From Escherichia coli (lineage in GTDB: Bacteria; Pseudomonadota; Gammaproteobacteria; Enterobacterales; Enterobacteriaceae), in NCBI RefSeq assembly GCF_041248615.1, contig NZ_CP158426.1: 64,000 bases of DNA; one strand, written 5' to 3'. Shown piece after piece: positions 24,826 to 51,764 of the stretch. The first letter of the stretch is position 1; each line of letters opens with the position of its first letter. The notes under the pieces were generated by a model, which did no database searches, was not told the origin of the DNA, and was given only the letters and a program-made list of their open reading frames with translations. The position numbers and the translations under genes were made by a program.

Positions 24826-24866
24826 GTGTTCCAGTAAATTCCTTACCTGTGAAATTCAGTCCGAAA

Positions 24867-24897
24867 GGTGAGTGTATAATCTTCTTATCCACTCACC
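24867..24897 (+). terminator. Hairpin downstream of gspM (possible operon terminator)
   Basis: An 8-bp stem GGTGAGTG / CACTCACC encloses a 15-nt loop. It is followed by an AT-rich tract but not by a clean U-run. Confidence 0.3.
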
Positions 24898-25175
24898 GAG
24901 TTAAATATTTTTGCAATAAGAAATATCCCACTTCCGCCATCACTGAATGTTCTGCAAAACGACAGATACGAGTTCTCTCCTGAAACAGCCCTGCGTCCTA
25001 TAAATATGCTTACGTGTGGCAATACATCATGATTATTAATAGATGCAATGAATCATTAGGTAGCAATTGATAGGTCAAAACATATAGGATAATTCTTGTG
25101 TGATCTGTATGTTGTGTAGCCTGGAAATTAGTAAAATTCCTGGAGATAATCAGAGAGGGAATTTCAAATAGTATA

Positions 25176-25840: not shown

Positions 25841-25908
25841 GTTTTCGGCTATTAAAAAGGTCAAACCGGCTGAGTGAATTTTATCCAGTTACAAACAAGT
25901 ATTACCTC

Positions 25909-25947
25909 CAGTGTATTGGTAGCTGTTAAGCCAGGGGCGGTAGCATA
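25909..25947 (+). promoter_or_regulatory. JUMPStart element with ops site (RfaH recruitment) upstream of kpsM
   Basis: The sequence cagtgtattggtagctgttaagccaggggcggtagcata contains GGCGGTAG at 25936-25943, about 30 nt upstream of the kpsM ATG. Confidence 0.85.
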
Positions 25948-25975
25948 CCTGAAGAGAATAGGATCACATCACCAA

Positions 25976-26752: not shown

Positions 26753-27426
26753 TTAAAATTGAAAATTTGACGAAGTCATATCGCACGCCAGCGGGTCGAC
26801 ATTATGTCTTTAAGAATTTAAATATTGAAATCCCTTCAGGAAAAAGTGTTGCCTTTATTGGTCGCAACGGAGCGGGTAAATCAACGTTACTGAGAATGAT
26901 TGGCGGCATTGACCGCCCCGACAGTGGAAAGATCATCACTAATAAAACAATATCATGGCCAGTCGGCCTCGCAGGTGGATTTCAGGGAAGTTTAACCGGA
27001 CGCGAAAACGTAAAATTTGTTGCCCGGTTATACGCGAAGCAAGAAGAACTAAAAGAGAAAATTGAGTTTGTCGAAGAATTTGCCGAACTCGGTAAGTACT
27101 TCGATATGCCGATTAAAACTTACTCATCTGGTATGCGATCGCGTTTAGGCTTTGGTTTAAGCATGGCATTTAAGTTTGATTATTATATCGTCGATGAAGT
27201 AACCGCAGTCGGTGATGCCAGGTTTAAAGAAAAATGCGCTCAATTGTTTAAAGAAAGGCATAAAGAGTCTAGTTTTTTAATGGTTTCACATAGTTTGAAT
27301 TCATTGAAAGAGTTTTGTGATGTGGCCATTGTGTTTAAGGATGATAATGCGGTTGGTTTTTATGAGGATGTTCATGAGGGGATAAAATCATACCAAATAA
27401 ATGAAAATACAACTATTAAGATTTAG
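26749..27426 (+). CDS. kpsT: Capsule export ABC transporter ATPase KpsT (region 3)
   Basis: 225 aa with Walker A GRNGAGKST, the signature YSSGMRSRL and Walker B YYIVDE. Confidence 0.95.
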   Translation: MIKIENLTKSYRTPAGRHYVFKNLNIEIPSGKSVAFIGRNGAGKSTLLRMIGGIDRPDSGKIITNKTISWPVGLAGGFQGSLTGRENVKFVARLYAKQEELKEKIEFVEEFAELGKYFDMPIKTYSSGMRSRLGFGLSMAFKFDYYIVDEVTAVGDARFKEKCAQLFKERHKESSFLMVSHSLNSLKEFCDVAIVFKDDNAVGFYEDVHEGIKSYQINENTTIKI

Positions 27427-27612
27427 GCCATTACGTGAAGATATAATTTACACTCCCCAAGTTAATACATATAAGTAATTATATTAATAAATATTTATAA
27501 AAGGCATCTAAAGAATAGATGCTTAGAGCCACTTAAACTGCTGTATTGTCTAAATGTAAGAAATAACGAAATGGGTTTTTGGTGATTACTGTACTCAAAA
27601 GGAGTCAAGAAT

Positions 27613-30600: not shown

Positions 30601-31122
30601 TTTGTTCATGATATCAAAACTCGTTTTGGTTCTTACTTTAAATACATTGAATTTTCTCCTATTCTTTCTTCTCAACTTATTTTGAATTTTGCGAATAATC
30701 CCAACGGTATAGATGCAGGGATGTTTGCTTCTCATGAAGTCGAAAATGTTTTTGGTGGGGGGTCTGTATGCTTAATTTCGCCTTTACTAGATTGCTATAA
30801 GGACTCTAATGGCACCATTAACCCTAAAATTATCGATGAGTTATTAAAAGCATCTAAATGGAAGAGAGGTGCCAGTGCTTATTATAACTTAGTCAATGGA
30901 ACTCAACCGCGAGTTAATCCTGCTAAAATGCCAGCGCCATCTGTTAACCCAGTTGTTGTGAAGCAAACGCCACAAACTACTTATGCACATCCTTTAAAGA
31001 CAACTACGCAGCGTAAACTTGCTAAGTTAAAAAAAGACCCATATTTATTCTTTAATGATTCCCAAAAACCTCTTTTAAAAAGTTTACGATTGTTCTTCAA
31101 AAATACATCAAAGCTTAATTAA
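27613..31122 (+). CDS. Region 2 giant multidomain protein, putative capsule polymerase (KpsS/KpsC-like Capsule_synth-type domain, HAD-like domain, unassigned C-terminal domain, basic tail)
   Basis: 1169-aa ORF in very AT-rich DNA. Residues around 215-330 align by motif with the KpsS and KpsC of this same window (VLACQVDNYFSY vs VLQVYNDSQI / QVEDDASI; VIVTEHGYK vs VIKHHPMD; ALSVSSSIGYQAALWQIPYFGLG vs VVTINSTAGISALIHNKPLKVMG). HAD motif I (SYDLFDTLVERD) and motif IV (HVGDNKQADGDMAKKHGIKT) are present. Confidence 0.6.
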   Translation: MKSILYYLEPRTELNDKLFRYATLRSYLLPEIDGLRIADKSLDFKMIVSRTIYNKAKQNNLKMEGIDFIIIDEDVFEKNSYLKNINVSNELYHGNLNIKANEELKSIISACLPVDYKPDIIISYESPAPFFKEIFPSSLLLNAMFGIFSRAPFPAYGLLDPCGLYEYSYQYKYADKIRAEEISEEEKEVIKLLRRQSSRALAAYHPLKKYISSLYEKYDRLVVLACQVDNYFSYNSCTNYPSQYAMVEDVLSQVPSNIGVIVTEHGYKRQISDEQIESLNEKYSNFIYFSKKDVFTPSQFILPYVDGALSVSSSIGYQAALWQIPYFGLGKSQVDVLCSNTSLMSFVNDVEKGIKIDRDNILYVLLSKVHLSHKNDLFNGKSYLNKLKDLFNKFTSNCDEYEYFNTKKSIDEVRKDIICGNREWLLKKNFIDSKLVPEVDHLRVAMSHSKAISYDLFDTLVERDFVEPHELFNLIESRVRNELNNKNFPFYYVRRQAEIDLRRETRGEFEITLDEIYERFPRYFDLTLEQLEKIKNIEIDAEVELVHPKKEMVREFYFSQMICESVSIITDIYLSQNVIERILQKVKISGYNKLLVSAETKTRKHNGTIYPEYLKYIRDNFDINAGQALHVGDNKQADGDMAKKHGIKTYVFQKAIDNYKKSLIADILRSSINHPGISSSVINGLFANKYHAGHWFKINKESIFNADEYNYGYMAIGPLVVGFTQWLYRRVNKLGIKKLYFLSRDGWILKKTFDYFYPESSSGIKTEYLYSSRRTAMVASLRNIDDIIEVASQNFNARKLSDFLSTRFGLDVDTVKKSVLEKYNYKHDTIVSPYFEFGKLIGFLKDIHHTILSNAKNERESYIDYLRETGFENDCLNGGATVVDIGYSGSMQYYLKKILQCPCVNGFYFLTHHHSRDYFSNDHFEGFLQNLDDHKIAYRHGLNDHVFIFEAALSSPEGSLIKMEGKGQEREMIFLEAEEEIVRKNALLGTHRGVMDFVHDIKTRFGSYFKYIEFSPILSSQLILNFANNPNGIDAGMFASHEVENVFGGGSVCLISPLLDCYKDSNGTINPKIIDELLKASKWKRGASAYYNLVNGTQPRVNPAKMPAPSVNPVVVKQTPQTTYAHPLKTTTQRKLAKLKKDPYLFFNDSQKPLLKSLRLFFKNTSKLN

Positions 31123-31130
31123 TATAATGT

Positions 31131-31158
31131 GAGTCGCACTATGGTGTGACTCTTTTTT
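31131..31158 (+). terminator. Rho-independent terminator between the two region 2 genes
   Basis: A 9-bp stem GAGTCGCAC / GTGTGACTC (one G-U pair) with loop TATG is followed by TTTTTT. Confidence 0.7.
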
Positions 31159-31240
31159 ATATGTCAGTGATAGTTATTAATGAAATATTTAATGCGCGAA
31201 GGTGTACGATTTTTACAATATTTAGAGACTGGTGGGTCAA

Positions 31241-32230
31241 ATGAGTATTTCTTTGAAAAATATTGATTTTGCTAAAGGTCCTGTTGATTCCCTCCATCAT
31301 GATTATTACTTATGGCGAGGGAAGAACATTGAGGATAAAAGACTTTTTCTCGTTTTCTCATCTCGGGGAGCAGGTCCTGGAGAATTTAGTTTTTTCAAAA
31401 CTTTTGATGCGCTTAATGTAAATGTTTTGCATGTTACACCCTCTGATTTTTCATGGTACCAAAAAGGGTTAGTCGGTTTAGGGAGTGATTTGCCTTCTGC
31501 ATTTAAAGCCCTATCTGACCGAATAGATAATTTCTGTATTTATCATAAAATAAAACAAATTATCTGTGTAGGGGCTTCCATGGGAGGATATGGTGCTTTA
31601 ATTTATGGGGCTTTATCTAGTAGAAAAATAAAAACAACACTTATTCTTTTTGGCACCGAAACAATATTAAAACTTCCTTATTCTAAAAGTTCTGAGAGTG
31701 AATTTGATATTCTCAAAAAATTTAAAGATGTAAGGTTTCTAGATTATTCTGATCTTGATGTGAATATGATATTTGGTGAGTTTGATATTGTAGATACTTA
31801 TTGTGCTTTATCGATGCGACATGATCGAAATTTTTCATTTTTTTCATGCACTAGCGCCTCACATGTTGTTCCGGAATACTTAAATAGACAAATTGGAATT
31901 GTTAATTTTTTTACAGACTTCTTATCGGGTGGAAGATCTTTTATTGGAAGAGGCCACATTGCTTCTGAGCTTTATCCTGAGGATATTTCTCCTCTTCTGT
32001 TCTCGAAACAATTTACTGAGGAATACAATAATGCCCTCCTCTGTTGCTTGAAAAAATATCCTTCATTTGGGTTTGCATGGAATAGATTAGGCGTATATTT
32101 ACACAATATAGGAGATCTGGCTGGGTCTTTAGCAGCATTAAAAAGAGCATTTTTCATCAACCCTGATTATCCAAATACAATTGAGCATCTTAACTCGGTA
32201 AGAAATAAACTAAAAACTAAAAACTTTTAG
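31241..32230 (+). CDS. Region 2 alpha/beta-hydrolase-fold protein with C-terminal TPR-like repeats (possible capsule O-acyl/acetyl modifying enzyme)
   Basis: It has the nucleophile elbow VGASMGGYGAL, with later Asp (GEFDIVD) and His (SASHVVPE) in canonical Ser-Asp-His order. The C-terminus AWNRLGVYLHNIGDLAGSLAALKRAFFINPDYPN is TPR-like. The ATG at 31241 is preferred over the GTG at 31232 because a GGTGGG Shine-Dalgarno sequence lies just upstream. Confidence 0.55.
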   Translation: MSISLKNIDFAKGPVDSLHHDYYLWRGKNIEDKRLFLVFSSRGAGPGEFSFFKTFDALNVNVLHVTPSDFSWYQKGLVGLGSDLPSAFKALSDRIDNFCIYHKIKQIICVGASMGGYGALIYGALSSRKIKTTLILFGTETILKLPYSKSSESEFDILKKFKDVRFLDYSDLDVNMIFGEFDIVDTYCALSMRHDRNFSFFSCTSASHVVPEYLNRQIGIVNFFTDFLSGGRSFIGRGHIASELYPEDISPLLFSKQFTEEYNNALLCCLKKYPSFGFAWNRLGVYLHNIGDLAGSLAALKRAFFINPDYPNTIEHLNSVRNKLKTKNF

Positions 32231-32307
32231 TTTTTATGTATACTTGTGTGAGGAATGAATAGCAATATATCTCAATATCTAAGAGCTGGTTTTTATATCG
32301 TTCATAG

Positions 32308-33516
32308 TTATAATTTTTTTACTTTTATTTGTTTTCTTACTCTATCCCCATAATAAACCCCATTAACCTGCGTCTTCACCAATAAATACCCCCGAAACTT
32401 CTTAAACAGTTTCATATCCGGTTTAAAATCGGCCTGCCAGAACTGGTGCAAATGCCCTTGATACGTCAAGCCTTTGATGTCGTACAGGGCATTGCCCATC
32501 ACTTTGAGTGGTTTGTTGTGAATCAGCGCAGATATCCCCGCCGTACTGTTAATTGTCACCACCGCTTTTGCGTGGCGTAACAATTCCGGCATCGGGAGAT
32601 CGTGCACATAAATGACTCGTTCCCCTAAGCCATATTCCTTACTCAACCGCTTAATTAATGGTCGATAGAGTCTGTGACCACGATCCATTGGATGGTGCTT
32701 GATCACCAAATAACTTTCTTTCGGTGCTTTACGTGAAAATGAGTACATGACTTCATTAATATAGTCACGCACATCGTTATAATTGCTGTGGTTACGAATC
32801 TGGCTATCGTTATACACCTGCAAAACGGCAAGATAATAACGCTGATCCAGCTCATTCATTAACCTCGGCAATACCTTACGCTGTGTTACCTTGTAAAGTT
32901 GCTTGCGCCAGTATGCACGAACCCAGCAACGTGCTTCATACCAGGGGGAAAACGATTTATGGTGGCGGTAGCGAGGGAACTCATGGCGGTAATGCCAGCC
33001 CATCAGGTAATACCACATCGCATGACCTATACGTTTCATCGTTGAAGGTTTTAAGTTCTCAACGTGCGGCGCAGGCATATCTGGTAACTTACGATAAAAA
33101 TCCGGATCGCGCGGTAGCGATGAATATGCGTTTACTCCGCCTTCTTCAACGGTTATAAATTGCGGGCGTAAATATCCTTCTTCAAATGCCAGAAAGCGGA
33201 GCCCTTTCGACTTTGCCCAGCGTTTTGCTTCTTTATGCAATGGGCGACAGTCACCAAAACAGAGGATGGTATCAAAGTCATATTGCCGGTGGAGATCCCG
33301 TAACCATCCGGGGAACTCTTTCGGCGTTTGGTAGTAGGCCAGGTATTGTCGATGGCGGCAGTAAAAACGATCCCCACCGTTGAATACAACATTCACAGCG
33401 TTACGTCCTAATGACTCTAACCATTCGGCGACGTCATTGAAAAAAGGTCCCATCGGCCCCTGCAATAGCAGATATTTTTTACCGGATAATAAAACGGTTA
33501 GTGCATTACCTTGCAT
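32308..33516 (-). CDS. kpsS: Capsule beta-Kdo transferase KpsS (region 1)
   Basis: Translation reads MQGNALTVLLSGKKYLLLQGPMGPFFNDVAEWLE..., 402 aa, recognised as KpsS. Confidence 0.93.
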   Translation of the reverse strand: MQGNALTVLLSGKKYLLLQGPMGPFFNDVAEWLESLGRNAVNVVFNGGDRFYCRHRQYLAYYQTPKEFPGWLRDLHRQYDFDTILCFGDCRPLHKEAKRWAKSKGLRFLAFEEGYLRPQFITVEEGGVNAYSSLPRDPDFYRKLPDMPAPHVENLKPSTMKRIGHAMWYYLMGWHYRHEFPRYRHHKSFSPWYEARCWVRAYWRKQLYKVTQRKVLPRLMNELDQRYYLAVLQVYNDSQIRNHSNYNDVRDYINEVMYSFSRKAPKESYLVIKHHPMDRGHRLYRPLIKRLSKEYGLGERVIYVHDLPMPELLRHAKAVVTINSTAGISALIHNKPLKVMGNALYDIKGLTYQGHLHQFWQADFKPDMKLFKKFRGYLLVKTQVNGVYYGDRVRKQIKVKKL

Positions 33517-33550
33517 AAATAATTTGCGTAATAGTCAACTATGAAATTGT

Positions 33551-35578
33551 TTAGCCAAATCTGACCTTGCAGAACATAATTAATTTGCGGTAATAGCGTA
33601 TTACCCGTCCCGCTTTTTTTCGGGTAATAAACATCGGCTTACGCGGCGTCTGGATTAAATATTCCGCAGCTTCCTCAACCGTAATAGGCTGTAGCCGTGT
33701 TGGGTGAATATATGTTGGGTAAACAATCAACGCCTGATAGATCAAGTCTGCTATCGTTAATTTTTGCTCGCGGCGCGGGCAATGATGTTCATCAACGGTT
33801 AAACCCCAACCGGCATAGAAGGGCAGGCCGTAACAATGAACTTGCTTGCCATGTAATAACGCTTCAAACCCGGACAATGATGTCATGGTGTGCACTTCAT
33901 CTGCGCGCTGAATGCATTGAATAATATCGGCGCCCAGTGCCTGATAATCAGCGAGTTCAGCAGTCAGTTCTGCCGGAATATCGCCCTTGCGATTCCCCAC
34001 CAGTACATCCGGGTGCGGTTTATAAACAATGTAGGCGTGCGGATTGCGCTCGCGTACTGTGCGTAATAACTCAAGGTTGCTCTTAATCGAGACAGTGCCT
34101 GTTTTAATGGAGGCATCGTCCTCTACCTGACCCGGCACCAGGATAACTTTTTTATCTTTGGCTTCGGCTGGTAGAGAGAAATCGGCTCCCAGGTTGTACT
34201 TACTCAGTTTGCTTTCAACCAGTCGCTGGCGTAATTTTTCAGCTCGCATCTGCTGCGCCAGCGTTAACTGGCTGTGATTAAGCAGGACTTCCAGGTCGCT
34301 GGGGCGCGTGGCGTCATAGTAGATCCCGCGTTTATCCAGTACCAACGATAGCGGCGGCAGCAGGTCAGAGCCAAGTCCGGATGAACGCAGAAAACCATCT
34401 TCCATTCGCCATAACGGCAGTGATTTTTGTTGCGCTTCGGCTCGCCATTGCTGTTCTCCCTTTACACCCCATACCACGCAGGCGCTCGCCGCAGTACAGC
34501 GACGTGAAAAACTCAGCCGGTTTGTTGCCGTTTGCAAGAAAGGTTTCAGGATCGCTGACTTCCACAGCGTTAAGCCTGGCGCCCATAAATAACCATCACG
34601 CTGTTGCAGATGTCGACGTTGTAATTGCAGCCATTGCAGCACGGTAAATAGATCGCTTACTTCTCCCGTTTGCGGATCGATATAGCGACAGTAACGCAGG
34701 TATGCAGCGGCAAAAAGTTCCTCCAGCGTGGCAGAACCGCGTCGGGCAGATAACAAAGCGGACTGTGGATGACGATCGTCGGTTAAACCCCAACCTGCAT
34801 ACCAAGGCTGGCCGAAACATGTTACTGGTTTTCCTGCCAGCAAGGCTTCAAAGCCGTACTGGGAGGTCACGACGTAAACCTGGGAAACGTGTCGCAATAG
34901 CGACTGCGGGCTGACATTCTCGGCAATCAAACGTACTCGTTGCGTGGCACGCAGATCAGCGAAATAACCTGTTTTCTTTCCTTCCAGTACATCTGGGTGC
35001 ACCTTCACCCAAATTTCGGCTTGAGGATTTTCCGCCATCGCGGCTTCCAGCATGGCAGCAAACTCATGCGGGCCAGCATTGCCATACGTCACTGACATAT
35101 CATTAAATGTCTGATCGACAACCAGAACGATGTCTGCACGTTCTGACTCATCAGCCACAAACGCAGGTGCCAGGTTATATTTCGACAAATCTCCGGTCAC
35201 GATGGTGTGCATCGCTTCTCTGGCCTGGCTTATCAGAGCTGTATTTCCGGCTTTATCCTGTACCAGTTTCTCCAGTGCTGAAGGCTTGCTGGCATCGTAG
35301 TAAATGCCACAATCATCCACCACCAGAGAAAGCGGCGGCTCGCCATTGACGCCAAGATCCAGCGAACGCACAAATCCATCTTCCAGACGAATGACGGGTT
35401 TTCCCGCTGCTTTGGCGATGGCGACTGGTTTCGCCGCGCTGGGACGATGTCCCCACACGGCGATAGCATCAACTTCTTGCGGAACAGGGCGCAGCAGAGA
35501 AAGTTTCTGGCACGGTTGCGCCAGAAATTTCTCCAGATGCGGAATACGCCAGATGCCAGGCGAGTAAATGCCAATCAT
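33551..35578 (-). CDS. kpsC: Capsule beta-Kdo transferase KpsC (tandem Capsule_synth domains)
   Basis: 675 aa starting [19 protein letters not shown]..., with duplicated HPDV motifs. Confidence 0.95.
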
Positions 35579-36315
35579 GCGTTTTCAGCCAGTTCCTGTG
35601 CCATCAGGGCGCGCACTTTTTCCAGGCATGCTGGGGTGTCGACGCCCGGACCGGTTGCGGCAACCTCAAATGTGCGGATGTTGATCCCTGCGCTCATCAA
35701 CCGCAGCTGCTCCAGTGATTCTGCCTGCTCTGGCATGGACTCCGGTAACTGACTGTAGTTTTGCAGCACATCGCGACGATAAGCGTAAATACCAACGTGT
35801 TTCAGGTAGCGCGCTTTTTCAGCATTACGCGGATAGGGAATCGGCGAACGGCTGAAATAAAGCGCATCCTGGCGGGTATTTACCACCACTTTTACCGTGC
35901 TTGGCTCGGTCGCTTCTTCGGCAGAAATCGCGTGGCATAGCGTTGCCACTGGCAACGCGGGATCATCACGCATTCCTTGTAACAGCGTTTCTACATCCCG
36001 CGGGCGAATCATTGGTTCATCGCCCTGCAGGTTAATGTAGATATCTGCCTCGACTTTATGCATCACCTCGACCAGCCGATCGGTGCCGGATTCATGATCG
36101 TTGCGCGTCATGATGGCTTTCCCGCCAAACGCCTGCACGGCCTTTTCAACACGCGGGTCGTCTGTTGCCACCCAAACTTCCGCAACGCCCGCCACCTGTA
36201 ACGCACGCTCGTAAACATGCTGGATCATCGGTTTACCAACAATATCGAGCAGTGGCTTACCCGGCAGGCGCGAGGAGCCATAGCGAGCCGGAATGACAAT
36301 AACTGCTTTGCTCAT
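35575..36315 (-). CDS. kpsU: CMP-Kdo synthetase KpsU
   Basis: 246 aa starting [25 protein letters not shown], overlapping the kpsC start. Confidence 0.95.
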
Positions 36316-36324
36316 TTCAACTCC

Positions 36325-38001
36325 TTACAAAGACAGAATCACTTTTGCACCCACCGCCAACTGGTAAAGGATGGTGGAAATACCGCGAGTAACTTCAATG
36401 TTTTTCGATTCATATTTCGGCAGAACCATAATCTCATCGCCCGGTTTGAGTGAATCCACATCTTCTGCGTTGACGGCTGCACCGTTCTGACGAATGACGA
36501 TAATTCTGGCGTTACCCGATTTCTGCGTCAGGCCACCACATTTCTCGATGTAATCCTCGGTGGTCATACCCTTCTGCCAGCTCACCGCGTTCGGGAACAG
36601 CACTTCGCCATGAACCATAACCAGCGATGTTTTCTCCGGAATATTGATGACGTCGCCATCTTCAAGCAGAACAGAATCAATATTGGATTCGTTGAGGATC
36701 ACTTCACCTTTCGGAACAACGGTGCGTGCTTTCGCCACAAAGCGGCTGATCAGTTGTGCTTCCTGCATTCGCAGGCTGGCTTCTTCTTTGGTGGATGACT
36801 GGGCAGAAAGTGATGCTTCCTCCAGCTTTTGCAGCGAGAGATTCAGCATCTCTTTCTGACGCTGAGCCACTGATGGGCGATAAAGCTGAACTGCGTTCAT
36901 CTGCGACATGCTGTTCGGGCGGACTTTTTCCAGAACCGCACGCATAGTGGAACCATAAGGCAGTACCATGGCATGTTCACCGGAGTGTGCGCCTTCAACC
37001 CGCACCTGAATGGTGCCGGCATAGCGGTCAGTGCTCACGATTAAGGTATCGCCATTTTGCAACATACGGCCTGGCGCAGAACTGATCGGATAGTATTCGC
37101 TGCGTTTTTGCAGCCCCTGTTTACGCATAATCGTAATGTGAGTCGCGCCAGGCTTAGGGCGCGCCCAGCTCAACGCTTCCGTTACGGGAATGCTGCTTTC
37201 GCGGAACTCAAAGTCGTAGCTGTTAAAGACATCGCCCTGAACGCTGAAAGTATGCTGACGCGGCCCGACGATGATGGTGTCACCATCGGCGAACTGCGAA
37301 AGCCCCAGTTTGCCGTTCAGCAGGAAGTCGTACAGGTTGACGTTGGAGCGCACGCGGTTACCGCGCTTGACCACAATATCAACGTAACTTCCGCGCTCTG
37401 GATCAACGCCGCCAGCCTTGATCAGATAATTGAGTAACGAATCAGACGTCACACCGCCATACAGACCAGGATTACGCACAAATCCGGTCACGTACACTTT
37501 TACTGGCTGCGCCTGTAATAAGGAGGCGTAGACGTTGACGTTGGACTGGTATACTTCCTTCACTTTGGATGTGACCAGGGCATTTAGCTGACTATTACTG
37601 ACGCCAGCAACTTTCACCGGACCAACGTTCGGCAGGAAAATATTACCTTTGGGATCAACCTGTAACGCACCATCAAAGGTGAACGCACCCCACAAGCGAA
37701 CCTGAATGCTATCACCCGGATTCAGAATATAGTCAGGGTTGAATCCTACCGTCGCACCGCTATCTGCGCTGGTGCCGTTGAAAAGTTGAGCACCAAACAT
37801 ACGGCTCATTACCACCGGCGGTGCGGGCGGCGGGGTATTGTCGAAGCCGCTCATGTTTTGCGTATCCGACTGTTGCCCGTTCAGAATACCGGTAAGCGGC
37901 GCGGCTCCTGTAAGGTTTGGGTCGGCGTTAATATCAATGGCCGCGCTGGCCTGCGCCGCGTGACAGGCGGCAATCAGTAAAATTGATTTAAATAATTTCA
38001 T
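36325..38001 (-). CDS. kpsD: Capsule outer-membrane/periplasmic export protein KpsD (OPX family)
   Basis: 558 aa starting MKLFKSILLIAACHAAQASA (signal peptide), recognised as KpsD. Confidence 0.95.
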   Translation of the reverse strand: MKLFKSILLIAACHAAQASAAIDINADPNLTGAAPLTGILNGQQSDTQNMSGFDNTPPPAPPVVMSRMFGAQLFNGTSADSGATVGFNPDYILNPGDSIQVRLWGAFTFDGALQVDPKGNIFLPNVGPVKVAGVSNSQLNALVTSKVKEVYQSNVNVYASLLQAQPVKVYVTGFVRNPGLYGGVTSDSLLNYLIKAGGVDPERGSYVDIVVKRGNRVRSNVNLYDFLLNGKLGLSQFADGDTIIVGPRQHTFSVQGDVFNSYDFEFRESSIPVTEALSWARPKPGATHITIMRKQGLQKRSEYYPISSAPGRMLQNGDTLIVSTDRYAGTIQVRVEGAHSGEHAMVLPYGSTMRAVLEKVRPNSMSQMNAVQLYRPSVAQRQKEMLNLSLQKLEEASLSAQSSTKEEASLRMQEAQLISRFVAKARTVVPKGEVILNESNIDSVLLEDGDVINIPEKTSLVMVHGEVLFPNAVSWQKGMTTEDYIEKCGGLTQKSGNARIIVIRQNGAAVNAEDVDSLKPGDEIMVLPKYESKNIEVTRGISTILYQLAVGAKVILSL

Positions 38002-38024
38002 CACAAACTCATTCAGCGACAGCG

Positions 38025-39173
38025 TTAGTCTCGGTGATCTTCAATAACAGCCAGCAACAGTTTCAGGGTGCCGAATAGCAGGCAGCACACCAGTAACCAG
38101 CAGGCGATCAAATAAGGGATATTTGGAAAAGACGATTCCTGCGGCAACTGTGGCGAACTGATCACTGACAGCACCTTGAGCTTACGAGCCGCTTCTACAC
38201 GGGTCTTTTCAATGGAGGTCAGGGTCAGTTTGTACAGCTCGGTGTTGAACTCTACTTTTGATTTGATTTCTTCAAAATCCACCGCCATACGGTTTAGCTT
38301 GTCACCCTGCGGCGCTGTGATTTTGCTTTTTTCTTCGTCAATTTGTGCCTGCAATGACTGAATCGCATTACGCGCACTCACAACTTGCGGGGCGTCTTCA
38401 CGCAGATACGTCAGCAAGTTCCGCAGGTCCGCTTCCATCTGGATCTTCTGGCCCATCAGCGTATTGACTAACGTGCTCGCCGCCTGTGCCTGTGCCTGTG
38501 GATCCAGAACGTTGTTGTTGTCCTGATAAGAGAGCAATTCCGCTTTGCTGGCGTCCAGACGCTGGCGTGCCTTTTCCATCTCCGTTTCTGCAAAGGCAAG
38601 CTGGTCACGCGCGATGCGATGTGACATCTCATTGATAAAGCGCTCTGACTCTTTCAGCACGGTCTGGTTAAACTTAAGCGCAAACTCCGGGCTAAAGCCC
38701 TGCGTCTGAATATTCAGTAATCCGGTTTTATCGTCATACGAGACGTTGATACGGTCCTTGTAGTACTTCAGGAAGCCTTCTGCAGTTTCATCCTTGCTAA
38801 GATGATTAAGAAAATCGAGCCCGCTGTGGCTAAACGCTTCACGAAAATTTAGTTGCTTATCCAGTGCCGCCAGCATATCCGGCGAGTTGATGTACTCTTT
38901 CAGATACAACGCATCTTCTGCGGAACTGGGGTTAGAGGCACCCAGAAGCAGACCAAAATTCAGGCTGCCGCTGTTTAAATCATCCGAGCGTTTAATGGCG
39001 ACTTTCGACTCGCTCATATAGCGAGGCTGGCTGAAGATAGCCAGATAGATCAGCAGCACCGCCATCGGTGCCAGAATGATGATTTTCGCCAGGTGTTTTT
39101 GGATATCTGCCAGTGAGATGGCAGACAGACGAGCACGCATCCAGGATACGGCAGACTTCACTTTTATCAACAT
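38025..39173 (-). CDS. kpsE: Capsule export inner-membrane PCP-3 protein KpsE
   Basis: 382 aa with N- and C-terminal hydrophobic segments and coiled-coil-like middle, recognised as KpsE. Confidence 0.95.
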   Translation of the reverse strand: MLIKVKSAVSWMRARLSAISLADIQKHLAKIIILAPMAVLLIYLAIFSQPRYMSESKVAIKRSDDLNSGSLNFGLLLGASNPSSAEDALYLKEYINSPDMLAALDKQLNFREAFSHSGLDFLNHLSKDETAEGFLKYYKDRINVSYDDKTGLLNIQTQGFSPEFALKFNQTVLKESERFINEMSHRIARDQLAFAETEMEKARQRLDASKAELLSYQDNNNVLDPQAQAQAASTLVNTLMGQKIQMEADLRNLLTYLREDAPQVVSARNAIQSLQAQIDEEKSKITAPQGDKLNRMAVDFEEIKSKVEFNTELYKLTLTSIEKTRVEAARKLKVLSVISSPQLPQESSFPNIPYLIACWLLVCCLLFGTLKLLLAVIEDHRD

Positions 39174-39244
39174 GTAACGATTATCAAAGTTTCAGTGGGG
39201 CGCAAACTCAATGAGAGACTAACCTCTCGCACCCCGTTGCTTAA

Positions 39245-40228
39245 TTAGTCGAAAATGCGCACAAGGCCAGTGACTTTATTTGCCTTGTTGGTCACCAATA
39301 ACGTTGAGACGCGGTGCTTTTGCATTTTTTCTTCCGCTTCAATGATCATGGTGTCTTCCGGTAGCGTCAGCGGTTCACGTGTCATCATCTGCGCAGCCGT
39401 GGCGGATGTCAGAGAATCCTCTTTTTCCATAAAGCGACGCAGGTCACCGTCGGTGATAATGCCCGCTAGCCCACCTTCTGCGTCTTCTACCATCACCATT
39501 CCCTGGCATCCGCTGGTGATACGTTGAATCACGGTTTTAAATGACGCATCCAGCTGTACCGCAGGAACATCATGCTGCATGACATCAGCAACGCGGGTCA
39601 GCAGGCGACGACCTAATGAACCGCCCGGGTGATAGCGCGCAAAATCATTCGGCATAAATTTGCGTTGGTGGATCATGGCAATCGCCAGCGCATCGCCGAT
39701 CGCCATCGTCAGCGTGGTAGACGTTGTTGGTGCAAGATTATTCGGGCAGGTTTCATTCGCCATGTGGAGTTCCAGCACGGCATCAGCATTTTTCGCCAGC
39801 GTGGAATTTCCATTATTGGTAATGGCGATAATTCGGTTGCCGAAATTTTTCAGTGAAGGAACTAGCTTGAGGATTTCATCCGTTTCACCGCTGGCAGAAA
39901 TAAGGATCAGAAGATCGTAAGGCGTAATCATGCCCAGATCGCCATGGAAAGCTTCTGCAGGATGAATAAAGAAACTAGGCGTACCCGTAGAGGCCAGCGT
40001 CGCTGACATTTTACGACCGACATGCCCTGATTTACCCATTCCCGAAAGAATAACGTGCCCTTTACAGTTCATTATCAAATTAAGGACACGCTGGTACTGC
40101 CCGGAATCCAGTTGTTTAGACAAGTTTTGTAATGCTGCGCCTTGTTCTGCCAGAGTCTGGCGAACAGAGGTAATTAGATATGGATCGATAGTACTGCTCT
40201 GGTCATCAGGTAAATGTCTTTCAGACAT
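39245..40228 (-). CDS. kpsF: Arabinose-5-phosphate isomerase KpsF
   Basis: Translation reads MSERHLPDDQSSTIDPYL..., 327 aa, with SIS plus tandem CBS domains. The ORF-track start at 40264 was trimmed to the internal ATG. Confidence 0.93.
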   Translation of the reverse strand: MSERHLPDDQSSTIDPYLITSVRQTLAEQGAALQNLSKQLDSGQYQRVLNLIMNCKGHVILSGMGKSGHVGRKMSATLASTGTPSFFIHPAEAFHGDLGMITPYDLLILISASGETDEILKLVPSLKNFGNRIIAITNNGNSTLAKNADAVLELHMANETCPNNLAPTTSTTLTMAIGDALAIAMIHQRKFMPNDFARYHPGGSLGRRLLTRVADVMQHDVPAVQLDASFKTVIQRITSGCQGMVMVEDAEGGLAGIITDGDLRRFMEKEDSLTSATAAQMMTREPLTLPEDTMIIEAEEKMQKHRVSTLLVTNKANKVTGLVRIFD

Positions 40229-40880
40229 ATCAGCTCCTTTGCACGGAAATAATGCCACAGTCACAACAAACCCGAACCCACTATAATTTATTTATGCTAA
40301 ATCAATGGGTTGTAACAAAATTTTTAATGAATATAAAACCATGGTCAGTCCATGCTTATATGCAGGACTTATCACCTTCTTATTAAGTCGCAATGTCTCA
40401 TGGAGGTGCGAAGATGCTGCAATATTACAGGCGAGAAGGGGAACCAAATTTTGCCCACCTATTTAACACACCCCTACATTATGAACAAGGAATTTAGGAT
40501 TTTTATCATTTATTAAAATGTTTCCTACTTGACTATTAAACCAAAAAACAATTTATCAATTGATTATTTCCTTGTAAAAAAAGAACGTATGACCATGTTA
40601 TTAATAAATAAAACACGTAAATAATGGTGATGTTGTTTTGTGATTAACTATTTAAGAGTGGCATAATAAACAAGTTGACAATTTCTATGTAAAGAAGAAG
40701 AAAATAATAAAATTTTAGCGGTGACTATTGAATGATATGATAGTTGTGGTGTTGATTATTTCTGGTAATGAATGCGGAATTAAATCTGGCCGGATTGTAT
40801 TTTTGCTATATCTATTTTTCAGGAGATTATTATTAAATATAAAAATAACAATGGTGATTATCTCCGGTTGACCTGGAGTC
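40229..40880 (-). promoter_or_regulatory. AT-rich kps region 1 promoter region upstream of kpsF
   Basis: This is a very AT-rich noncoding stretch in the position of the described region 1 promoter. The exact -10/-35 elements and regulator sites were not mapped here. Confidence 0.5.
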
Positions 40881-41026
40881 ACGTATGCCAGCGAGTGCTT
40901 TCTTCCGGGCCTTCCTTCACTTCAGAGAAAAAGAGGCAATCATCAGGCTCTTTTTGAGTCATATGCGCCGATAATCAACTGTCTTGAACGTAAAAATTAT
41001 GGAGCAACATGATGCTACGATTCATT

Positions 41027-41231
41027 TCACTCTTCGTTCTTTCTGAGCATTGCGTTCAGGATGGTCAGCAATTTACGCATACTGTCAACCAGCGCCACTT
41101 TTTTGGTTTTTCCGGCTGCTGACAGATGCATGTAAAATGCCTTTATCACCGGATTAAACCAGGTTACCACAAGCGCTGCCATGTGCAGGGCTGCTCTTGC
41201 CTCCGTACGCGCACTGGCGTCGTTCGGCCAG
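41027..41231 (-). pseudogene. C-terminal remnant of an IS110-family transposase
   Basis: The minus-strand translation WPNDASARTEARAALHMAALVVTWFNPVIKAFYMHLSAAGKTKKVALVDSMRKLLTILNAMLRKNEE-stop matches the conserved IS110-family C-terminus. No upstream part is present. Confidence 0.75.
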
Positions 41232-41364
41232 CAGATATGTGTGGGATAACAGGGATGTTATGTGAACTGAACTGTGTTTTGTTAGCGGGGGGATGTTTAT
41301 TGATGATTCGGGAGTGTTTAAGACCTGATGGCGTTATGCTCCCAAGTTTATTTTATATAAAGAT

Positions 41365-41396
41365 CCAAAAGCAAAAACCCGCCTTGTGGGCGGGTT
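41365..41396 (-). terminator. Rho-independent terminator downstream of the DUF4942 gene
   Basis: The stem AACCCGCC / GGCGGGTT has a short loop. On the minus strand it is followed by TTTGCTTTTGG. Confidence 0.6.
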
Positions 41397-41407
41397 CTTT
41401 AGAATAG

Positions 41408-41429
41408 TGGTGCCGGAATCGGAATCGAA
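41408..41429 (-). repeat. Degenerate copy of the tRNA-Phe 3-prime end (island att-type direct repeat)
   Basis: The minus strand reads TTCGATTCCGATTCCGGCACCA. The E. coli tRNA-Phe 3-prime end, as I recall it, is TTCGATTCCGAGTCCGGGCACCA. That is one substitution and one missing G. Confidence 0.65.
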
Positions 41430-41539
41430 AATTTCTTTTATCATATTGATATTAATATAATTTGTTTGGTTTGATTAAAAATGTACCCTCAATTATACCC
41501 GCAGTCCCTTTTGATATCGAAAGGGAATCACACTCGGGA

Positions 41540-42382
41540 TCAGGCTGAGAGCACAGAAGGAAAGTACCTGGCTATTATATCGTTAATTCTGTCAATCAGT
41601 TCCAGCCTTTTGAAAGTGATGTGTGCAGATCCCTTCTTAAAGTATTTAATGATGAACATCTCGTCTTCATAGCGCTCTTTACCCTGAACGGACTGGATGT
41701 GACCATCCAGACGAATAGTGATGTTTTCCCGGTTGTCGGGGATCGGTTTGCCGCTGAACAGATGTAGCATTCTTTCCAGGTCGACGAGTCGGTCAGTCTG
41801 TTGCCCGGTGATAAGATGAAACCCCCACCGGTCCCACCTCACCAGGTTGTTGACGATAATTTTACTGCCAAATTTGCAGGGGCAATTGGTTTTGTAATTC
41901 CAGCTCAGTCCCCTGAAGACGTTGATCACCCCTCGCTCAAACACCTCATCCTTATTCTGGTGTAGTTGTTCAAATGTGATCAGAATGTTCGCTTCACTGA
42001 TTTCCGGAAAATTATCGTACTCCAGTGACCGGTACCATGTATCACGGGCCTGTGCATCCATTAAGGAAAGCATCCCTGAACGTTGCATCAGGTCACGCCA
42101 GATTTCGCGATCGAGATTGCGTGTGATGGCTTTCATTGCGGTTTCCGGTTTCTCCATCAGCCAGCAGCCGCAGCGAAAATCCTGTTTCATGGCCCAGCCC
42201 GGGGCGGCTTTACCGCCAATACTTTCTGTCATTGCTGATATTTCAGCCAGTTGCCGGATAAGTGTGTCGATTTGCAGCAGTGTACTCTTTCGTACAGCCA
42301 GAATGTGGCGGATATTGGTTGAGCAGATAACGTCCGTATGCCCGGTGACCACTTCCGGACGGGAGATTGTGATGTCTGACAT
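41540..42382 (-). CDS. DUF4942-family protein typical of CP4-like islands
   Basis: 280-aa ORF (MSDITISRPEVVTGHTDV...), in the usual position distal to the cbtA-like toxin. Confidence 0.7.
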   Translation of the reverse strand: MSDITISRPEVVTGHTDVICSTNIRHILAVRKSTLLQIDTLIRQLAEISAMTESIGGKAAPGWAMKQDFRCGCWLMEKPETAMKAITRNLDREIWRDLMQRSGMLSLMDAQARDTWYRSLEYDNFPEISEANILITFEQLHQNKDEVFERGVINVFRGLSWNYKTNCPCKFGSKIIVNNLVRWDRWGFHLITGQQTDRLVDLERMLHLFSGKPIPDNRENITIRLDGHIQSVQGKERYEDEMFIIKYFKKGSAHITFKRLELIDRINDIIARYFPSVLSA

Positions 42383-46330: not shown

Positions 46331-48448
46331 TCAGAAAGTCACATTCAGCGTGGCCTGACCGTTATAACCTTCAGCGCTGCTGCCGCTGACACTGTGGGCA
46401 TAACCGGCCTGAACGCCCAGGGTGATATTTTCCCGGACACGGGCTTCCAGTCCGGCCTGCAGGTCCAGTGACGTGCCATTCCGGGACGGTGAGAACGTCA
46501 TGTTACTGCCGGCGGCGGCTGTACCCATGCTCATGTCACCCCGGGAGCTGAAAGTGCGGATAACAGAAGGCTGTACCCACCAGTTCACCGGCAGTTCACT
46601 CACACGGTGTTTTGTACTGTCGCGCAGAGTGTCACGGGATGAGGTGCCTTCGCCAAAGGTCATATCGTTGTGGCTGCCCAGACGGAAGCCGGCACGCACA
46701 TGTTGTGTACTGCCATGCCCGAACTTCACATAACCGGCGTTATCCTGGCCGTCATCCAGGGAGAGCCCCTGCCAGGTGTACTGCAGTTGTGGCTCCAGCA
46801 TCAGGTTGTCAGTGATACTGAAGGGCAGACCGGTTTCCAGTGAGCCCAGCCAGCCCCAGCCCCGGGCGCGGAAGTCGTTATTGTCCGATGACGCTTTCAT
46901 GCTGTGGCGGGTTCCCTGTGCCACAATGTCAGCCCACAGGCCGGAGGACGTGTGTGTCAGATTCAGGTATCCGCCCAGGCTGCCGGCATCATCCCGGACC
47001 GTGCCGGCGCGGGAACCGTCATCATCCTTAACATCAACGGAAGAATGGCCTGCAGCACCATATACCCCTGTCGTCAGAGACATACCGGCAACCTCTGTTC
47101 TGAGCAGGTCACCCTCCAGATGGACGAAGCCATAGCTGCCGCTGCTTTCCGGCGTGGCTCCACGGGCAATACCGCCGTTGTTATCGTGACCGAGATGACC
47201 GCCCTGAATGCTGAGACGGACGCTGTTATTTTCACCGCTTACACCGGTCTGATGGCTGCGGGAGCCTGCCAGAATCCGGTCATAGTCCATTGCCTGTGTC
47301 AGCATGGAGGCATACAGGGGGACTTCAGCACGATAAGCATTTTCACTGCGCAGGTACCAGTCTTCATCGCTGTCACGGTTCAGGGTGTAGTTAAAGGCTC
47401 CGGCCTGAAGCGGGCGACTCAGGGCAAACGCACCTTCTTCTGTGGTGGCACCATTCTGTGCATCCACAACCCGGATACCCTGTCCGGAGGTTGCCACCCC
47501 GAGGTTACTGTTTCCGACATTTGTAAACGCAAGCCAGGTTTTGCCGGTTGCCTGACCACCATTAATCACCAGCTGGTCAGAGGTATTGCTGCCATCAAGG
47601 CGAACACGCATATTGATGGTGCCACCCTGACCGGTGAGGTTACTGGTTGTCAGTTTATGGAACGTTACCGGGGCGTTGCCTTTTGCAACAGCACGGCTCA
47701 GTACGGCATCCGGTGTTGTCTGATTGTCAAAGTAAATCTCCCCTGCGTTAACAATATCGCCGGTACTGACCACATCACCATTCAGTACCATGCTGGCGCC
47801 TTTACTGAGCTGTGTTCTGCCACTCAGACTTCCCCCGGCAGCCAGCATCAGTGTTCCACGATGTCCGACAGTGGTGTTGCTGGCCTGTCCCCCGGCATTA
47901 ACCGTAAAGCTGCCGCCATTTTCCAGCAGCAGGTCGCTGGCCTGACCGGATATGCCATCAATACTGAACTTACCGCTGGCATTGGTCCCCTCAACAGTGG
48001 CACCACTGTCTGCTATCAGGGCACCACCGGATGTCATGGTGACATCTGTTGCCTTACCACCGGCAGACACTGCCAGGGTACCGCCGTCATCCACCAGTGT
48101 TTTCTGCGCTGAATGGCCCTCCAGTACATCCAGGCGACCGCCGGACTCCAGAACAACGCCGTCAGCCTTACCGTTTTCCACTGTGAAATTGCCCAGACGG
48201 TTGCTGCCGGTGACGGTTGCCGCCGTACTGGTGACCAGTGCGCCGCCCTGCGTCAGGGTGACATTCGTGGCTGTACCACCGGCGTTCACCTGCAGTTTGC
48301 CTTTCTGGTTAACGGTGGTGAAATCCGCCAGACCACCTTCCTTGATAATCTGCCAGCCGTCACTGTTAACAACAGTGCCAGACGCCGTACCGCCGTTGTG
48401 CACATACTGGTACCCCCCATTCAGCGTGGTATCCAGTGCGTGACCATG
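46331..48448 (-). pseudogene. flu: Antigen 43 (Flu) autotransporter, distal part (rest of passenger plus beta-barrel), separated from its 5-prime part by an IS
   Basis: The frame is open from the IS junction (HG HALDTTLNGGYQYVHNGGTASGTVVNSDGW...). It ends in a beta-barrel with the terminal ..GQATLNVTF. Confidence 0.9.
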
Positions 48449-48533
48449 TGCGTATTACCGTGAAGGAGATCGGTGAGTAACATCGATGGAGATCGGTTCG
48501 TGTCACTTTCACAGAACCGTTTTTAAATTACCT

Positions 48534-49283
48534 TCACTGATCTCCTTCGGTCAACGGAGATTGTATTTTCCGCATTGATTCTCCTTTAAGTTCGATCTTG
48601 ATACTGCCATGAACCAGTCGATCTAGGATGGCATCCGCATGTGTGGAGTCTCCGATCATTTTGTACCAGTTTTCCACCGGCAACTGGCTCACTACGATGA
48701 TTGAGCCTCGTTGGTACATCAGATCCACTATTTCCAGCAGGTCGCTACGCTGTTCTGATGAGAGAGGTTCCAGCCCCCAGTCATCCAGAAGCAGCAGATC
48801 GCTATTATTCAGCCTGGTCAAAAGTTTGCTGTATCTTCCATCAGCATGCCCCTGATAGCACTGTTCCATCAGCGCTTTAAGGCGATAATAGTAGACCTTG
48901 TATCCCTGTCGGCAGGCATTATGACCAAGTGCACATGCCAGGAACGTTTTACCGCTGCCGGTGGCCCCGGTCAGTAAAATATTTTGTTTCAGGGTTAACC
49001 AGTTTCCCTGACTGAGTGAACGGATGAGGGCCCTGTCCAGCCCTCTATTGTTACGATAATCCAGCTTTGATAACTCAGCATTAAGTCTGAACCGTGCATG
49101 TTTGATCAGACGCTCTGCCTTCCTGTTTTCACGGCAGGTTAGTTCTTCTGCTGTCAGTAATGACAGGCGTTCTTCGAAGCCCAGCTCCTGGTATGTGCCC
49201 GGCTGAGCAAGTTGCTTTTTAAGCGCATCACGGAAGCCGGTGAGTTTAAGTGCGGTCAGTTGTTCGTAAAGATGATTCATCAT
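48534..49283 (-). CDS. istB: IS21-family helper ATPase IstB
   Basis: 249 aa with Walker A GATGSGKT and Walker B LLLLDDWG. Confidence 0.92.
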   Translation of the reverse strand: MMNHLYEQLTALKLTGFRDALKKQLAQPGTYQELGFEERLSLLTAEELTCRENRKAERLIKHARFRLNAELSKLDYRNNRGLDRALIRSLSQGNWLTLKQNILLTGATGSGKTFLACALGHNACRQGYKVYYYRLKALMEQCYQGHADGRYSKLLTRLNNSDLLLLDDWGLEPLSSEQRSDLLEIVDLMYQRGSIIVVSQLPVENWYKMIGDSTHADAILDRLVHGSIKIELKGESMRKIQSPLTEGDQ

Positions 49284-49294
49284 TGGATCCCGTA

Positions 49295-50836
49295 TCAGTG
49301 GTAATACTCACTGCCGCGTACGTTTTCGTGTTCCATCGTGGATAACAGATCTGGTTTTGGATCCTGAACAGGTTGTTTATCCAGACCTTTTTCCAGGATC
49401 GATTTAATACCTGACAGACGCCATACCTTTGTTTTCAGAGCTCTTGCACATGCTGCATTAAGTCTGGCTTTACTGTATTTTTTATGAAGGTTCAGGAGTC
49501 CAAGGCAGAAGCGATAGCTTTGTTCCGGATGTGGACGAGAGTTCAGTATATGAAGCACATAACTATGAGTTTCACTGCCTATGTGCCCCGCCCATTCCAG
49601 AAGACGCTCTGGCGTCCAGGTGGCATGCTGTCGATGAGCTTCAGGCATGTGCTCGTTGCGGGTACTGTAGCCATAAGTACGCTTGCGCGGGTGCACAGCA
49701 ACCTCCTGCCCCTGATTGAAGAGTCTTACCAGTTCTCCGGAGATCCATGCTTCCAGTTGCTGGCCTAACAGCGAACATGGAACCGAGTAGTAATGTTTGT
49801 CGATTTCCACGTGGTAATCGGCATGAACTCTGACTTTCTTCACCAGGGTGTAACTGTAACTGGCTTCAGGAAGAGGCTTCAGTGCGGGTTTATCAAGCTG
49901 GATGAAGAGTTCTGCACGTGAATAACCCAACTTCTGCATTATTTTGTTATTCAGTCTTTCCAGCAACTCCCGAATGCGCTGATTAAGCGATGCAAGGCTG
50001 TAGAAGATCTCATGCCTGATTCGGGCCATGATCCAGCGTTCAACAACCTGAACGCCAACTTCAGCTTTGGCTTTATCTTTCGGTTTACGTGGCCGCGCAG
50101 GCAAAACTGCGACATTATAATGCTCAAGCATCTGCTGGTAGGTAGGGTTAACGTCAGGATCATACTTACATGCCCTGGATGTGGCGCTTTTCAGATTGTC
50201 CGGAACAACAAGTTCAGGAACGCCACCCAACCACTGGAAGCAGCGAACATGACTCATCACCCAGTCTTCAAGCTGCTGAGACCAGGTGGCCTCTGCCCAT
50301 GTGTAACTTGATGCCCCGAGAACAGCTACGATGACCTGAGCAGTTCTTATTTCTCCGGTCTCAGGGTCGGTAACGCCAACGGTAGGTCCACAGTAATCAA
50401 CGAAAAGTTTTTCGCCAGCTTTATGTACCTGACGCATTGATGGTGAAGTGGTTTTGAGCCATTCACGGTACATCCGGCAGTAATGGTTATAGCTGTAAAA
50501 ACCGCCTGGATTACGCTCACAGTATTCTTCCCAGAGTAGCTGCAGCGTCACGCATTTATTACGCAGTTCCCGGTGTACTGTAGCCCAGTCAGGCAGAGAG
50601 TGCTTCTTCATCTTAACCTGGGTCTGAAGGAACGCATGTTTTAGTTTTGTATCATCCCATCCTGTAGGTAAGGGCCACTGCTTTATGCCAAGTTGAGCCG
50701 CCCGATTAGCATATCTGGATACAACGGAAGGGGAGATTGCAAGACTACGACCAATTTGTCGATGGCTGAGTCCAACACCGTATTTAAGCCTAAGAATTTC
50801 TTTAAGTTTTCTCATAGAAATTGGAACTGTTGGCAT
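49295..50836 (-). CDS. istA: IS21-family transposase IstA
   Basis: 513 aa with an N-terminal HTH (GLSHRQIGRSLAISPSVVSRY) and a DDE core. It lies directly upstream of istB. Confidence 0.9.
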   Translation of the reverse strand: MPTVPISMRKLKEILRLKYGVGLSHRQIGRSLAISPSVVSRYANRAAQLGIKQWPLPTGWDDTKLKHAFLQTQVKMKKHSLPDWATVHRELRNKCVTLQLLWEEYCERNPGGFYSYNHYCRMYREWLKTTSPSMRQVHKAGEKLFVDYCGPTVGVTDPETGEIRTAQVIVAVLGASSYTWAEATWSQQLEDWVMSHVRCFQWLGGVPELVVPDNLKSATSRACKYDPDVNPTYQQMLEHYNVAVLPARPRKPKDKAKAEVGVQVVERWIMARIRHEIFYSLASLNQRIRELLERLNNKIMQKLGYSRAELFIQLDKPALKPLPEASYSYTLVKKVRVHADYHVEIDKHYYSVPCSLLGQQLEAWISGELVRLFNQGQEVAVHPRKRTYGYSTRNEHMPEAHRQHATWTPERLLEWAGHIGSETHSYVLHILNSRPHPEQSYRFCLGLLNLHKKYSKARLNAACARALKTKVWRLSGIKSILEKGLDKQPVQDPKPDLLSTMEHENVRGSEYYH

Positions 50837-51029
50837 AGGTATCCTTTACCGGAATGGCAAAAGATACAGATCAACACACCTGTGAAGTTCCAATAACATT
50901 GATGGAGATCACTGAATAACAAAATGAGTCAAAAGTGATCTCCATCGATGTTATTCAGCGATCTGTTCAAATGTTATTACCCGATCTCGATGGAAGTTAT
51001 TGAGTGATCTCCTTTCATGAAAATACGCA

Positions 51030-51764
51030 ACCATGTACAGTCTGGTCGCCGCCGGCATAAACCACAGTGGTATTTGCCGTTCCTTCAGCAGCCACAATCT
51101 GACGACCATTTTTATTGATGGTGGTGCGTACGGCATCTCCGTAGACGGTCTGCCCGGTATCACCATTTTCCGCATCCGGTCCCCCTTCCGCGCCGGTATT
51201 CACAACCGTGTCGGTTGCCACTGCGCCGGATTTGACGGCCTGCCAGCCCTTCTCATTAATGACGGTACCCGTTGCAATCCCGCCTTCATGTACCCACTGC
51301 TCACCGCCGTTCAGCGTGGTGTTCACTGCCTGCCCCTGAAGGCTCTGTCCGCCTCCGGCACTGATAACCGTGTCTGAAACGCTTCCTCCGGCATTCACTC
51401 TCTGAAGACCACCACCGGTGACAGTAGTGTTGTTGGCGATACCGCCATTTTGTATCCATTGCCCGCCGGTATTGACCTCGTTATCCGGCCCATACTCCAG
51501 CCCGGTACTGATGGTCATTCCGTTGGTCGTACCGAAGACAATCTGGTTGTCATGATTTTCCAGTGCTCCGCCGCTCACGGTTTCTCCCGCCTGTACAACC
51601 GTGTCAGCAGCCAGTGCCGGGACTGATGTGACAGCAGCAAGAGACAGCGCAACCGCCACACCGGCGCGTTTTCCCCGTGAGCGGGCCAGTTCGGAGGCCA
51701 CCACCAGGGTGCCCGTAATGTGATTCCATACCAGCCTGTAGCTGGTGTTCAGATGTCGTTTCAT
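51030..51764 (-). pseudogene. flu: Antigen 43 (Flu) 5-prime part (extended signal peptide plus start of passenger)
   Basis: Translation reads MKRHLNTSYRLVWNHITGTLVVASELARSRGKRAGVAVALSLAAVTSVPALA ADTVVQAGETV... It runs into the IS after ..DQTVHG. Confidence 0.9.

Follow-up and report, generated by a model that had tools for sequence, protein, structure and literature searches.

In K1 lineages of Escherichia coli, a P4-like intB island has been described that extends from pheV to a 22-bp partial copy of this gene (pheV'), adjoins kpsF, is recurrently excised and has an intact pheV as its alternative state (PMC10272209). The same pheV' island arrangement is documented for K15 (PMC7387560) and species-wide (PMC11537424). 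The 22-bp pheV' itself is described in PMC7387560 and PMC10272209, and PMC11537424 gives the attR as TTCGATTCCGAGTCCGG-CACCA for 16 reference strains. For related islands, the literature gives evidence of integrase-dependent excision to a circle, restoring attB (PMC10272209; Hochhut 2006 as cited in reviews).

Here we analysed a stretch of 64,000 nt (hereafter the window), which an exact overlap check showed to be identical to positions 896001-960000 of NZ_LT599825.1 (E. coli NRZ14408). We conclude, with a probability of roughly 0.93, that positions 41408-41429 of the window are the attR core of a ~34.3-kb CP4/P4-like island (GI-pheV, alias PAI-V) inserted in the 3' end of pheV. This pheV' attR arrangement is correct but ordinary, and already published; our analysis adds to it the exact breakpoints, a missing G that would derive from attP, a rare G-to-T variant and corrected bounds of an IS110 remnant. 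The locus joins two mobile blocks once lumped as one pathogenicity island, namely a P4-type island capable of excision and a capsule locus that lacks an integrase, and their separation, which published work had already established, bears on the annotation of island boundaries and on the distinction between capsule switching and island loss.

The pheV' core and its chromosomal flank

The core is a 22-nt copy of the tRNA-Phe 3' end, TTCGATTCCGATTCCGGCACCA, on the minus strand at 41408-41429. A sequence-only reading of the window had pointed out this resemblance, and both a search with the first 17 nt of the core and an alignment with K-12 pheV agree with it. The last 23 nt of tRNA-Phe are TTCGATTCCGAGTCCGGGCACCA in K-12 pheV as well as in the strain's own pheV; 21 of the 22 core nucleotides match them, with one substitution (G to T at position 12) and a 1-nt gap (one G missing from the GGG run). 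Because of this gap, an ungapped 23-mer search allowing up to 3 mismatches returned no match within the window. ARAGORN detected no tRNA anywhere in the 64-kb window, and the 17-mer search found no second tRNA-Phe copy elsewhere in it.

Directly after the CCA end, alignment with K-12 identifies positions 41361-41407 (minus strand) as the native chromosomal 3' flank of pheV with its intrinsic terminator. The local alignment runs 47 nt past the tRNA 3' end (41407-41361) and stops at 41360/41361, and the flank is identical to that of the empty site in LF82. The terminator hairpin, AAGAACCCGCCCACAAGGCGGGTTTTT at 41373-41399, was located by a terminator scan and by the K-12 alignment, has a fold energy of -22.2 kcal/mol (z = -2.9) and also follows pheV in K-12; at this junction it is now parted from its tRNA. 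Since the 22-mer is still joined to the native pheV flank and terminator, we are dealing with a true island/chromosome junction. An Rfam scan of 40200-41700 gave two sub-threshold matches, P9 and Trp_leader, which were rejected as chance matches driven by the terminator hairpin.

The breakpoints were mapped with a 191-nt probe across the junction, whose BLAST matches fall into discrete classes. These classes separate the kps block from the pheV flank at 41360/41361, the flank from the core at 41407/41408 and the core from the island arm at 41429/41430. Full-length matches, combining the kps flank, pheV' and this island end, were counted in 639 genomes with a symmetric probe; matches starting at 41361 carry the same island end and pheV' followed by a K-12-type spacer and yghD, without kps (~780 genomes by subtraction, 1416 minus 639; e.g. 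Res13). Where matches start at 41408, this island end and its core are located at pheU (e.g. O145:H28), and those ending at 41429 have an intact tRNA or a different island arm (e.g. EcN).

The copy had been called degenerate in the sequence-only reading, a description that fits one of its two differences: the G-to-T change is a real lesion, but the lack of one G is shared by many islands as their canonical attR form. The GG core goes with this same island arm whether the right-hand context is pheV with kps, pheV lacking kps or the pheU tandem, and attL keeps GGG in all sequences read, including D8 and the strain's own pheV. The missing G travels with the island arm as the standard attR form and is not decay. 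In ATCC 8739, for which Table 1 of PMC11537424 states 'no direct repeat', we find a 22-nt pheV' copy adjoining the kps flank.

The G-to-T variant, on the other hand, is present in only 11 of 5426 complete genomes, as determined with a 41-nt probe requiring T, and we therefore regard it as a recent, lineage-specific mutation. Single mismatches can cut deletion frequency by orders of magnitude (PMC11537424), and this core substitution may weaken excision or prevent it altogether. At window position 41418 (core position 12), it converts ATTCCGAGTCCG to the perfect tandem ATTCCGATTCCG. A T is found at the same position in the unrelated intP4.1-type attR, and the two together could reflect a templated mutation that has arisen repeatedly and fixes islands at their site.

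Integrase, attL and the island arms

From the orientation of the copy, the sequence-only reading had placed the tRNA and the integrase to the right of the window, outside it, and both are indeed present there in NZ_LT599825.1, on the minus strand and thus oriented like the copy. The intact pheV, a tRNA-Phe(GAA) with the full 23-nt 3' end given above, lies at 971752-971827 (window-equivalent 75752-75827) and is followed by yqgA and speC. An intact 420-aa tyrosine recombinase, the P4-type integrase, lies at 970292-971554 (window-equivalent 74292-75554); it contains the domains Arm-DNA-bind_3, Phage_int_M and Phage_integrase, and its PDB matches are solved fragments of CP4-like integrases. The DNA from core to core measures 34,322 bp (~34.3 kb), with attL ~11.7 kb past the right window edge. 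In K-12, the sequence shows that pheV adjoins yghD, as had been stated. Strain D8 has a 100% identical junction and the same layout, with a larger island.

The distal (non-integrase) arm of the island occupies 41430-41539 (minus strand), from the core up to the stop codon of a DUF4942 gene, and it also stands before the core at pheV loci lacking kps and at pheU. Within it, the motif GCGGGTATAATTGAGGGTACA at 41482-41502 is a putative arm-type integrase site, and the integrase would bind there; its near-identical counterpart at the integrase end, GGGTATAATTGCGGGTATAC, is ~130 nt away from the core, so that the 19-nt motif GGGTATAATTG(C/A)GGGTA(T/C)A is found near both island ends. Further inside are the DUF4942 gene (41540-42382, minus strand; Pfam PF13708, E 1.2e-65, and PGAP), which is the last of the CP4-like (yee-type) module of the island, and a small HTH protein of the AlpA family (59959-60165, minus strand; Phage_AlpA in Pfam, E 3.1e-9), a candidate excision (directionality) factor. 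The shared end motif and the AlpA homologue are consistent with an excision-competent P4-type system, which they fit without proving.

The integrase-proximal third of the island is dense in IS elements. Within the window, at 46331-51764, an IS21-like ISEc12 (istA and istB, 48534-50836) cuts an Ag43/Cah autotransporter gene into two pseudogene fragments. At the pheU locus near cadC of O145:H28 strain RM12761, an integrase-proximal arm and a truncated integrase, not chromosomal flank, come after the same island end and GG core; this junction is a tandem, attP-like one between two islands.

In the mechanism that we propose, a P4-type tyrosine integrase would have recombined the attP of the island with the last ~23 nt of pheV, restoring the tRNA gene in full on the integrase side (attL) and leaving at the far end the 22-nt partial copy attached to the original pheV terminator. 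The missing G would be supplied by the island's own attP; with the GG taken as attP-derived, strand exchange would fall within the ~7-nt 3'-terminal stretch GGCACCA that the two partners have in common. The G-to-T change would arise afterwards, by mutation in one lineage. The kps cluster, the 238-bp IS110 remnant and 151 bp of other DNA make up a separate block that the island does not include; it occupies the interval from the pheV terminator to yghD and has no recombinase of its own. The sequence relationships, the places of the tRNA and the integrase and the empty sites are direct observations; the crossover position, the arm-type sites, the order in which this lineage gained its two blocks and the present capacity of the island for excision are inferred.

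The capsule block and its IS110 remnant

The whole kps-bearing segment extends from 24813 to 41360, with breakpoints mapped against K-12 and strain Res13, and in kps-negative strains it is replaced by a ~113-bp spacer from yghD to the pheV terminator. ORFs and PGAP names show region 1 (kpsFEDUCS) and region 3 (kpsMT) around a variable region 2 in the pheV-yghD interval, as also in D8 and LF82; the KpsM ORF carries ABC2_membrane, and the segment has the features of an E. coli group 2 capsule (kps) locus. The first gene of region 1, kpsF, is an ORF at 39245-40264 (minus strand; PGAP start at 40228). The AT-rich region upstream of it (40265-40971, minus strand), where the composition profile shows GC down to 21%, is conserved together with the IS110 remnant in 1478 genomes and, from its position, presumably holds the region 1 promoter.

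Region 2 (27613-32230) consists of just two ORFs, of 1169 aa and 332 aa. The 1169-aa protein has no Pfam match, and its residues 424-786 match Bcs3, the capsule polymerase of Haemophilus influenzae type b (PDB 8a0c/9h50, E 3.9e-28); this suggests a K antigen of the ribose/ribitol-phosphate type. The 332-aa protein has no match in Pfam or NCBIfam. Across the kpsF, IS110 and pheV' junction, strains D8 and NRZ14408 are 100% identical, yet they differ in their region 2 genes (window 27400-32300), which indicates that the capsule type was replaced in an otherwise conserved locus.

The right junction of the kps block is the same in 6 of 6 kps-positive sequences read. On the yghD/kpsM side, at 24813-24825 and onward to kpsM, the window has an alternative yghD C-terminus (GGAGTT|GATAAGAGGATAA), while D8 and LF82 have the K-12-type yghD end followed by unrelated sequence; an exact pattern of the yghD-side junction matched neither of these two strains, whose junction is truly a different one. 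Since this junction differs among strains, the history of kps is not that of one clean insertion.

The IS110-family remnant lies at 40972-41209 (minus strand) and comprises the last ~61-62 codons (stop at 41027-41029) and ~55 nt of the IS 3' end. The fragment proposed in the sequence-only reading at 41027-41231 is thus real, with its bounds corrected to ~40972-41209; positions 41210-41231 have no homology support. PGAP annotates 41027-41209 as a partial IS110-family transposase without N-terminus, the NCBIfam model transpos_IS110 is matched at positions 281-342 of 343 (E 3.6e-8), and DNA homology to a plasmid IS110 element spans ~41209 down to ~40972. BLASTP aligns the C-terminal 62 aa, with 74% identity, to residues 251-312 of a complete IS110 transposase from a plasmid. 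In that relative, DEDD_Tnp_IS110 occupies residues 9-154 and Transposase_20 residues 195-278, and the remnant aligns to 251-312 only: it retains the IS110 tail and the IS 3' end, the Transposase_20 core is mostly missing, and Pfam has no match at all in its 68-aa translation, the N-terminal DEDD (RuvC-like) domain included. With ~238 bp left and both the DEDD domain and the 5' non-coding end deleted, the remnant is therefore inert.

Between the remnant and the pheV flank, a 151-bp stretch (41210-41360) forms the rightmost part of the kps segment; it is absent from K-12 and near-identical in LF82, ATCC 8739 and EcN. In a distant BLAST against plasmids, this stretch had no homologue but one E. 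coli-like record, and the search gave only generic IS110 homology except for that record, a 29-kb 'K. oxytoca plasmid' resembling E. coli chromosomal DNA. The record, NZ_LR890315.1 ('Klebsiella oxytoca plasmid 4', labelled circular and non-mobilizable), combines the E. coli CP4-like module with the pheV terminator flank, the IS110 remnant and kpsFEDU (96% identity), and may be a contamination, a misassembly or a truly mobilised chromosomal segment. The IS110-remnant junction was sought twice among species-representative genomes, with 0 matches in the first scan and, in the second, 2 unrelated ones in metagenome-assembled genomes (MAGs) that were taken as chance, and the genomes scanned showed no trace of the kps right-end module outside E. 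coli. In the interval from the IS110 3' end to the kpsF promoter region, at ~40925-40935, a 12-nt sequence (TTCCATAGGCTC) shared by LF82, ATCC 8739, EcN and NZ_LR890315.1 is missing from the window.

All kps-positive genomes sampled have the IS110 fragment 151 bp inward from the right boundary of the kps block. It is conceivable, though we consider it improbable, that the fragment is a scar left by the vehicle which originally brought the group 2 capsule cluster to its site ~47 nt downstream of pheV, an event that the literature calls unexplained. We found no discussion of the remnant beside kpsF in the open-access literature; PGAP annotates it routinely.

To define the empty site we used as a query a chimera of the K-12 yqgA-pheV-terminator sequence and window positions 41360-41000, and required one continuous match. 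In this way, 209 complete genomes were found to carry intact pheV, the terminator, the IS110 remnant and kpsF without the island. LF82 presents the whole locus in this form (yqgA, intact pheV, terminator, IS110 remnant, kpsFEDUCS, region 2, kpsTM and yghD, with no integrase), and the unoccupied site of K-12 consists of pheV, terminator and yghD. Other genomes have the island end and pheV' without kps. Because the island and kps each occur without the other, kps lies outside the repeat-delimited element, as the sequence-only reading had maintained.

The parsimonious order is that kps was acquired before the island. The reverse, with the island first at this site and kps arriving later, perhaps by homologous recombination of the yghD/pheV-terminator flanks from a kps-positive donor, would make kps not the older block; we regard it as unlikely. 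The different region 2 genes behind the 100%-identical junction of D8 and the window, together with the variation of the yghD-side junction, speak for a region that recombines freely, and PMC10272209 infers multiple independent introductions of kps. The same study, however, dates kps before the PAI in CC95. Moreover, the flank allele of the window, CTATTCTAAAG, is that of LF82 (kps-positive, empty site) and not the K-12-type allele of Res13, the sole kps-negative island-bearing strain read; this allele does not strictly track kps, as the kps-positive EcN has the K-12-type terminator flank.

Very unlikely, in our view, is a single large composite pheV island of the kind classically described as the 80-kb 'PAI V536', in which kps would be internal cargo and the 22-nt copy a relic without meaning as a boundary. 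Such a view agrees with the absence of kps from K-12 at this locus, with reviews that give the K15 capsule as cargo of PAI-536-pheV and with PMC7387560, which counts kps within the pheV-PAI. It is contradicted by the 209 genomes in which kps accompanies an intact pheV with neither integrase nor island, by the ~780 genomes (by subtraction) with the same island end and pheV' and no kps, by the native pheV terminator between the copy and kps, and by the lack of a further tRNA-Phe copy elsewhere in the window.

Finally, a chance resemblance or a decayed tRNA-Phe pseudogene with no tie to integration would suit a short, imperfect match in which ARAGORN detects no tRNA, but can be set aside: the first 17 nt of the core have a single match within the window at 1 mismatch where 0.01 are expected from dinucleotide-preserving shuffles, the tRNA homology begins exactly at the published att core and runs on into the pheV terminator, and the sequence upstream of the core is an island arm found at pheU too.

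Comparison with described systems

With the cryptic prophages CP4-44 and CP4-57 of K-12 and with the satellite phage P4, which P4-family integrases insert into tRNA 3' ends, the island that ends at this attR core shares a module of DUF4942, cbtA/cbeA, radC-like, antirestriction, Ag43 and AlpA genes and the same integrase architecture. The tRNA target and the cargo differ from theirs, and no phage structural genes were seen here. The adjoining IS110 remnant is homologous to IS110-family elements, which encode RNA-guided DEDD recombinases, in its C-terminal 62 aa and its 3' non-coding end; unlike those elements, it is reduced to just ~238 bp.

The attR of GI-pheV islands of the intP4.1 type (CFT073, Nissle 1917, ST131) is TTTCATTCCGATTCCGGGCACCA, with T at the same core position as in the window, and in EcN it adjoins the same pheV terminator and IS110 remnant. 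In contrast to the window, it has another distal arm, keeps GGG and differs in the 5' part of the core.

The closest counterpart is the attR of GI-pheV/PAI-V in ExPEC (e.g. 536, APEC O1 and S88; PMC11537424 Table 1, PMC10272209), which has the same 22-nt core with one G deleted, the same place between the yee/CP4-like module and kpsF, the same P4-like integrase by pheV and the same alternative empty site. Compared to these islands, the one described here adds the G-to-T change at position 12 of the core, measures ~34.3 kb and is rich in IS elements.
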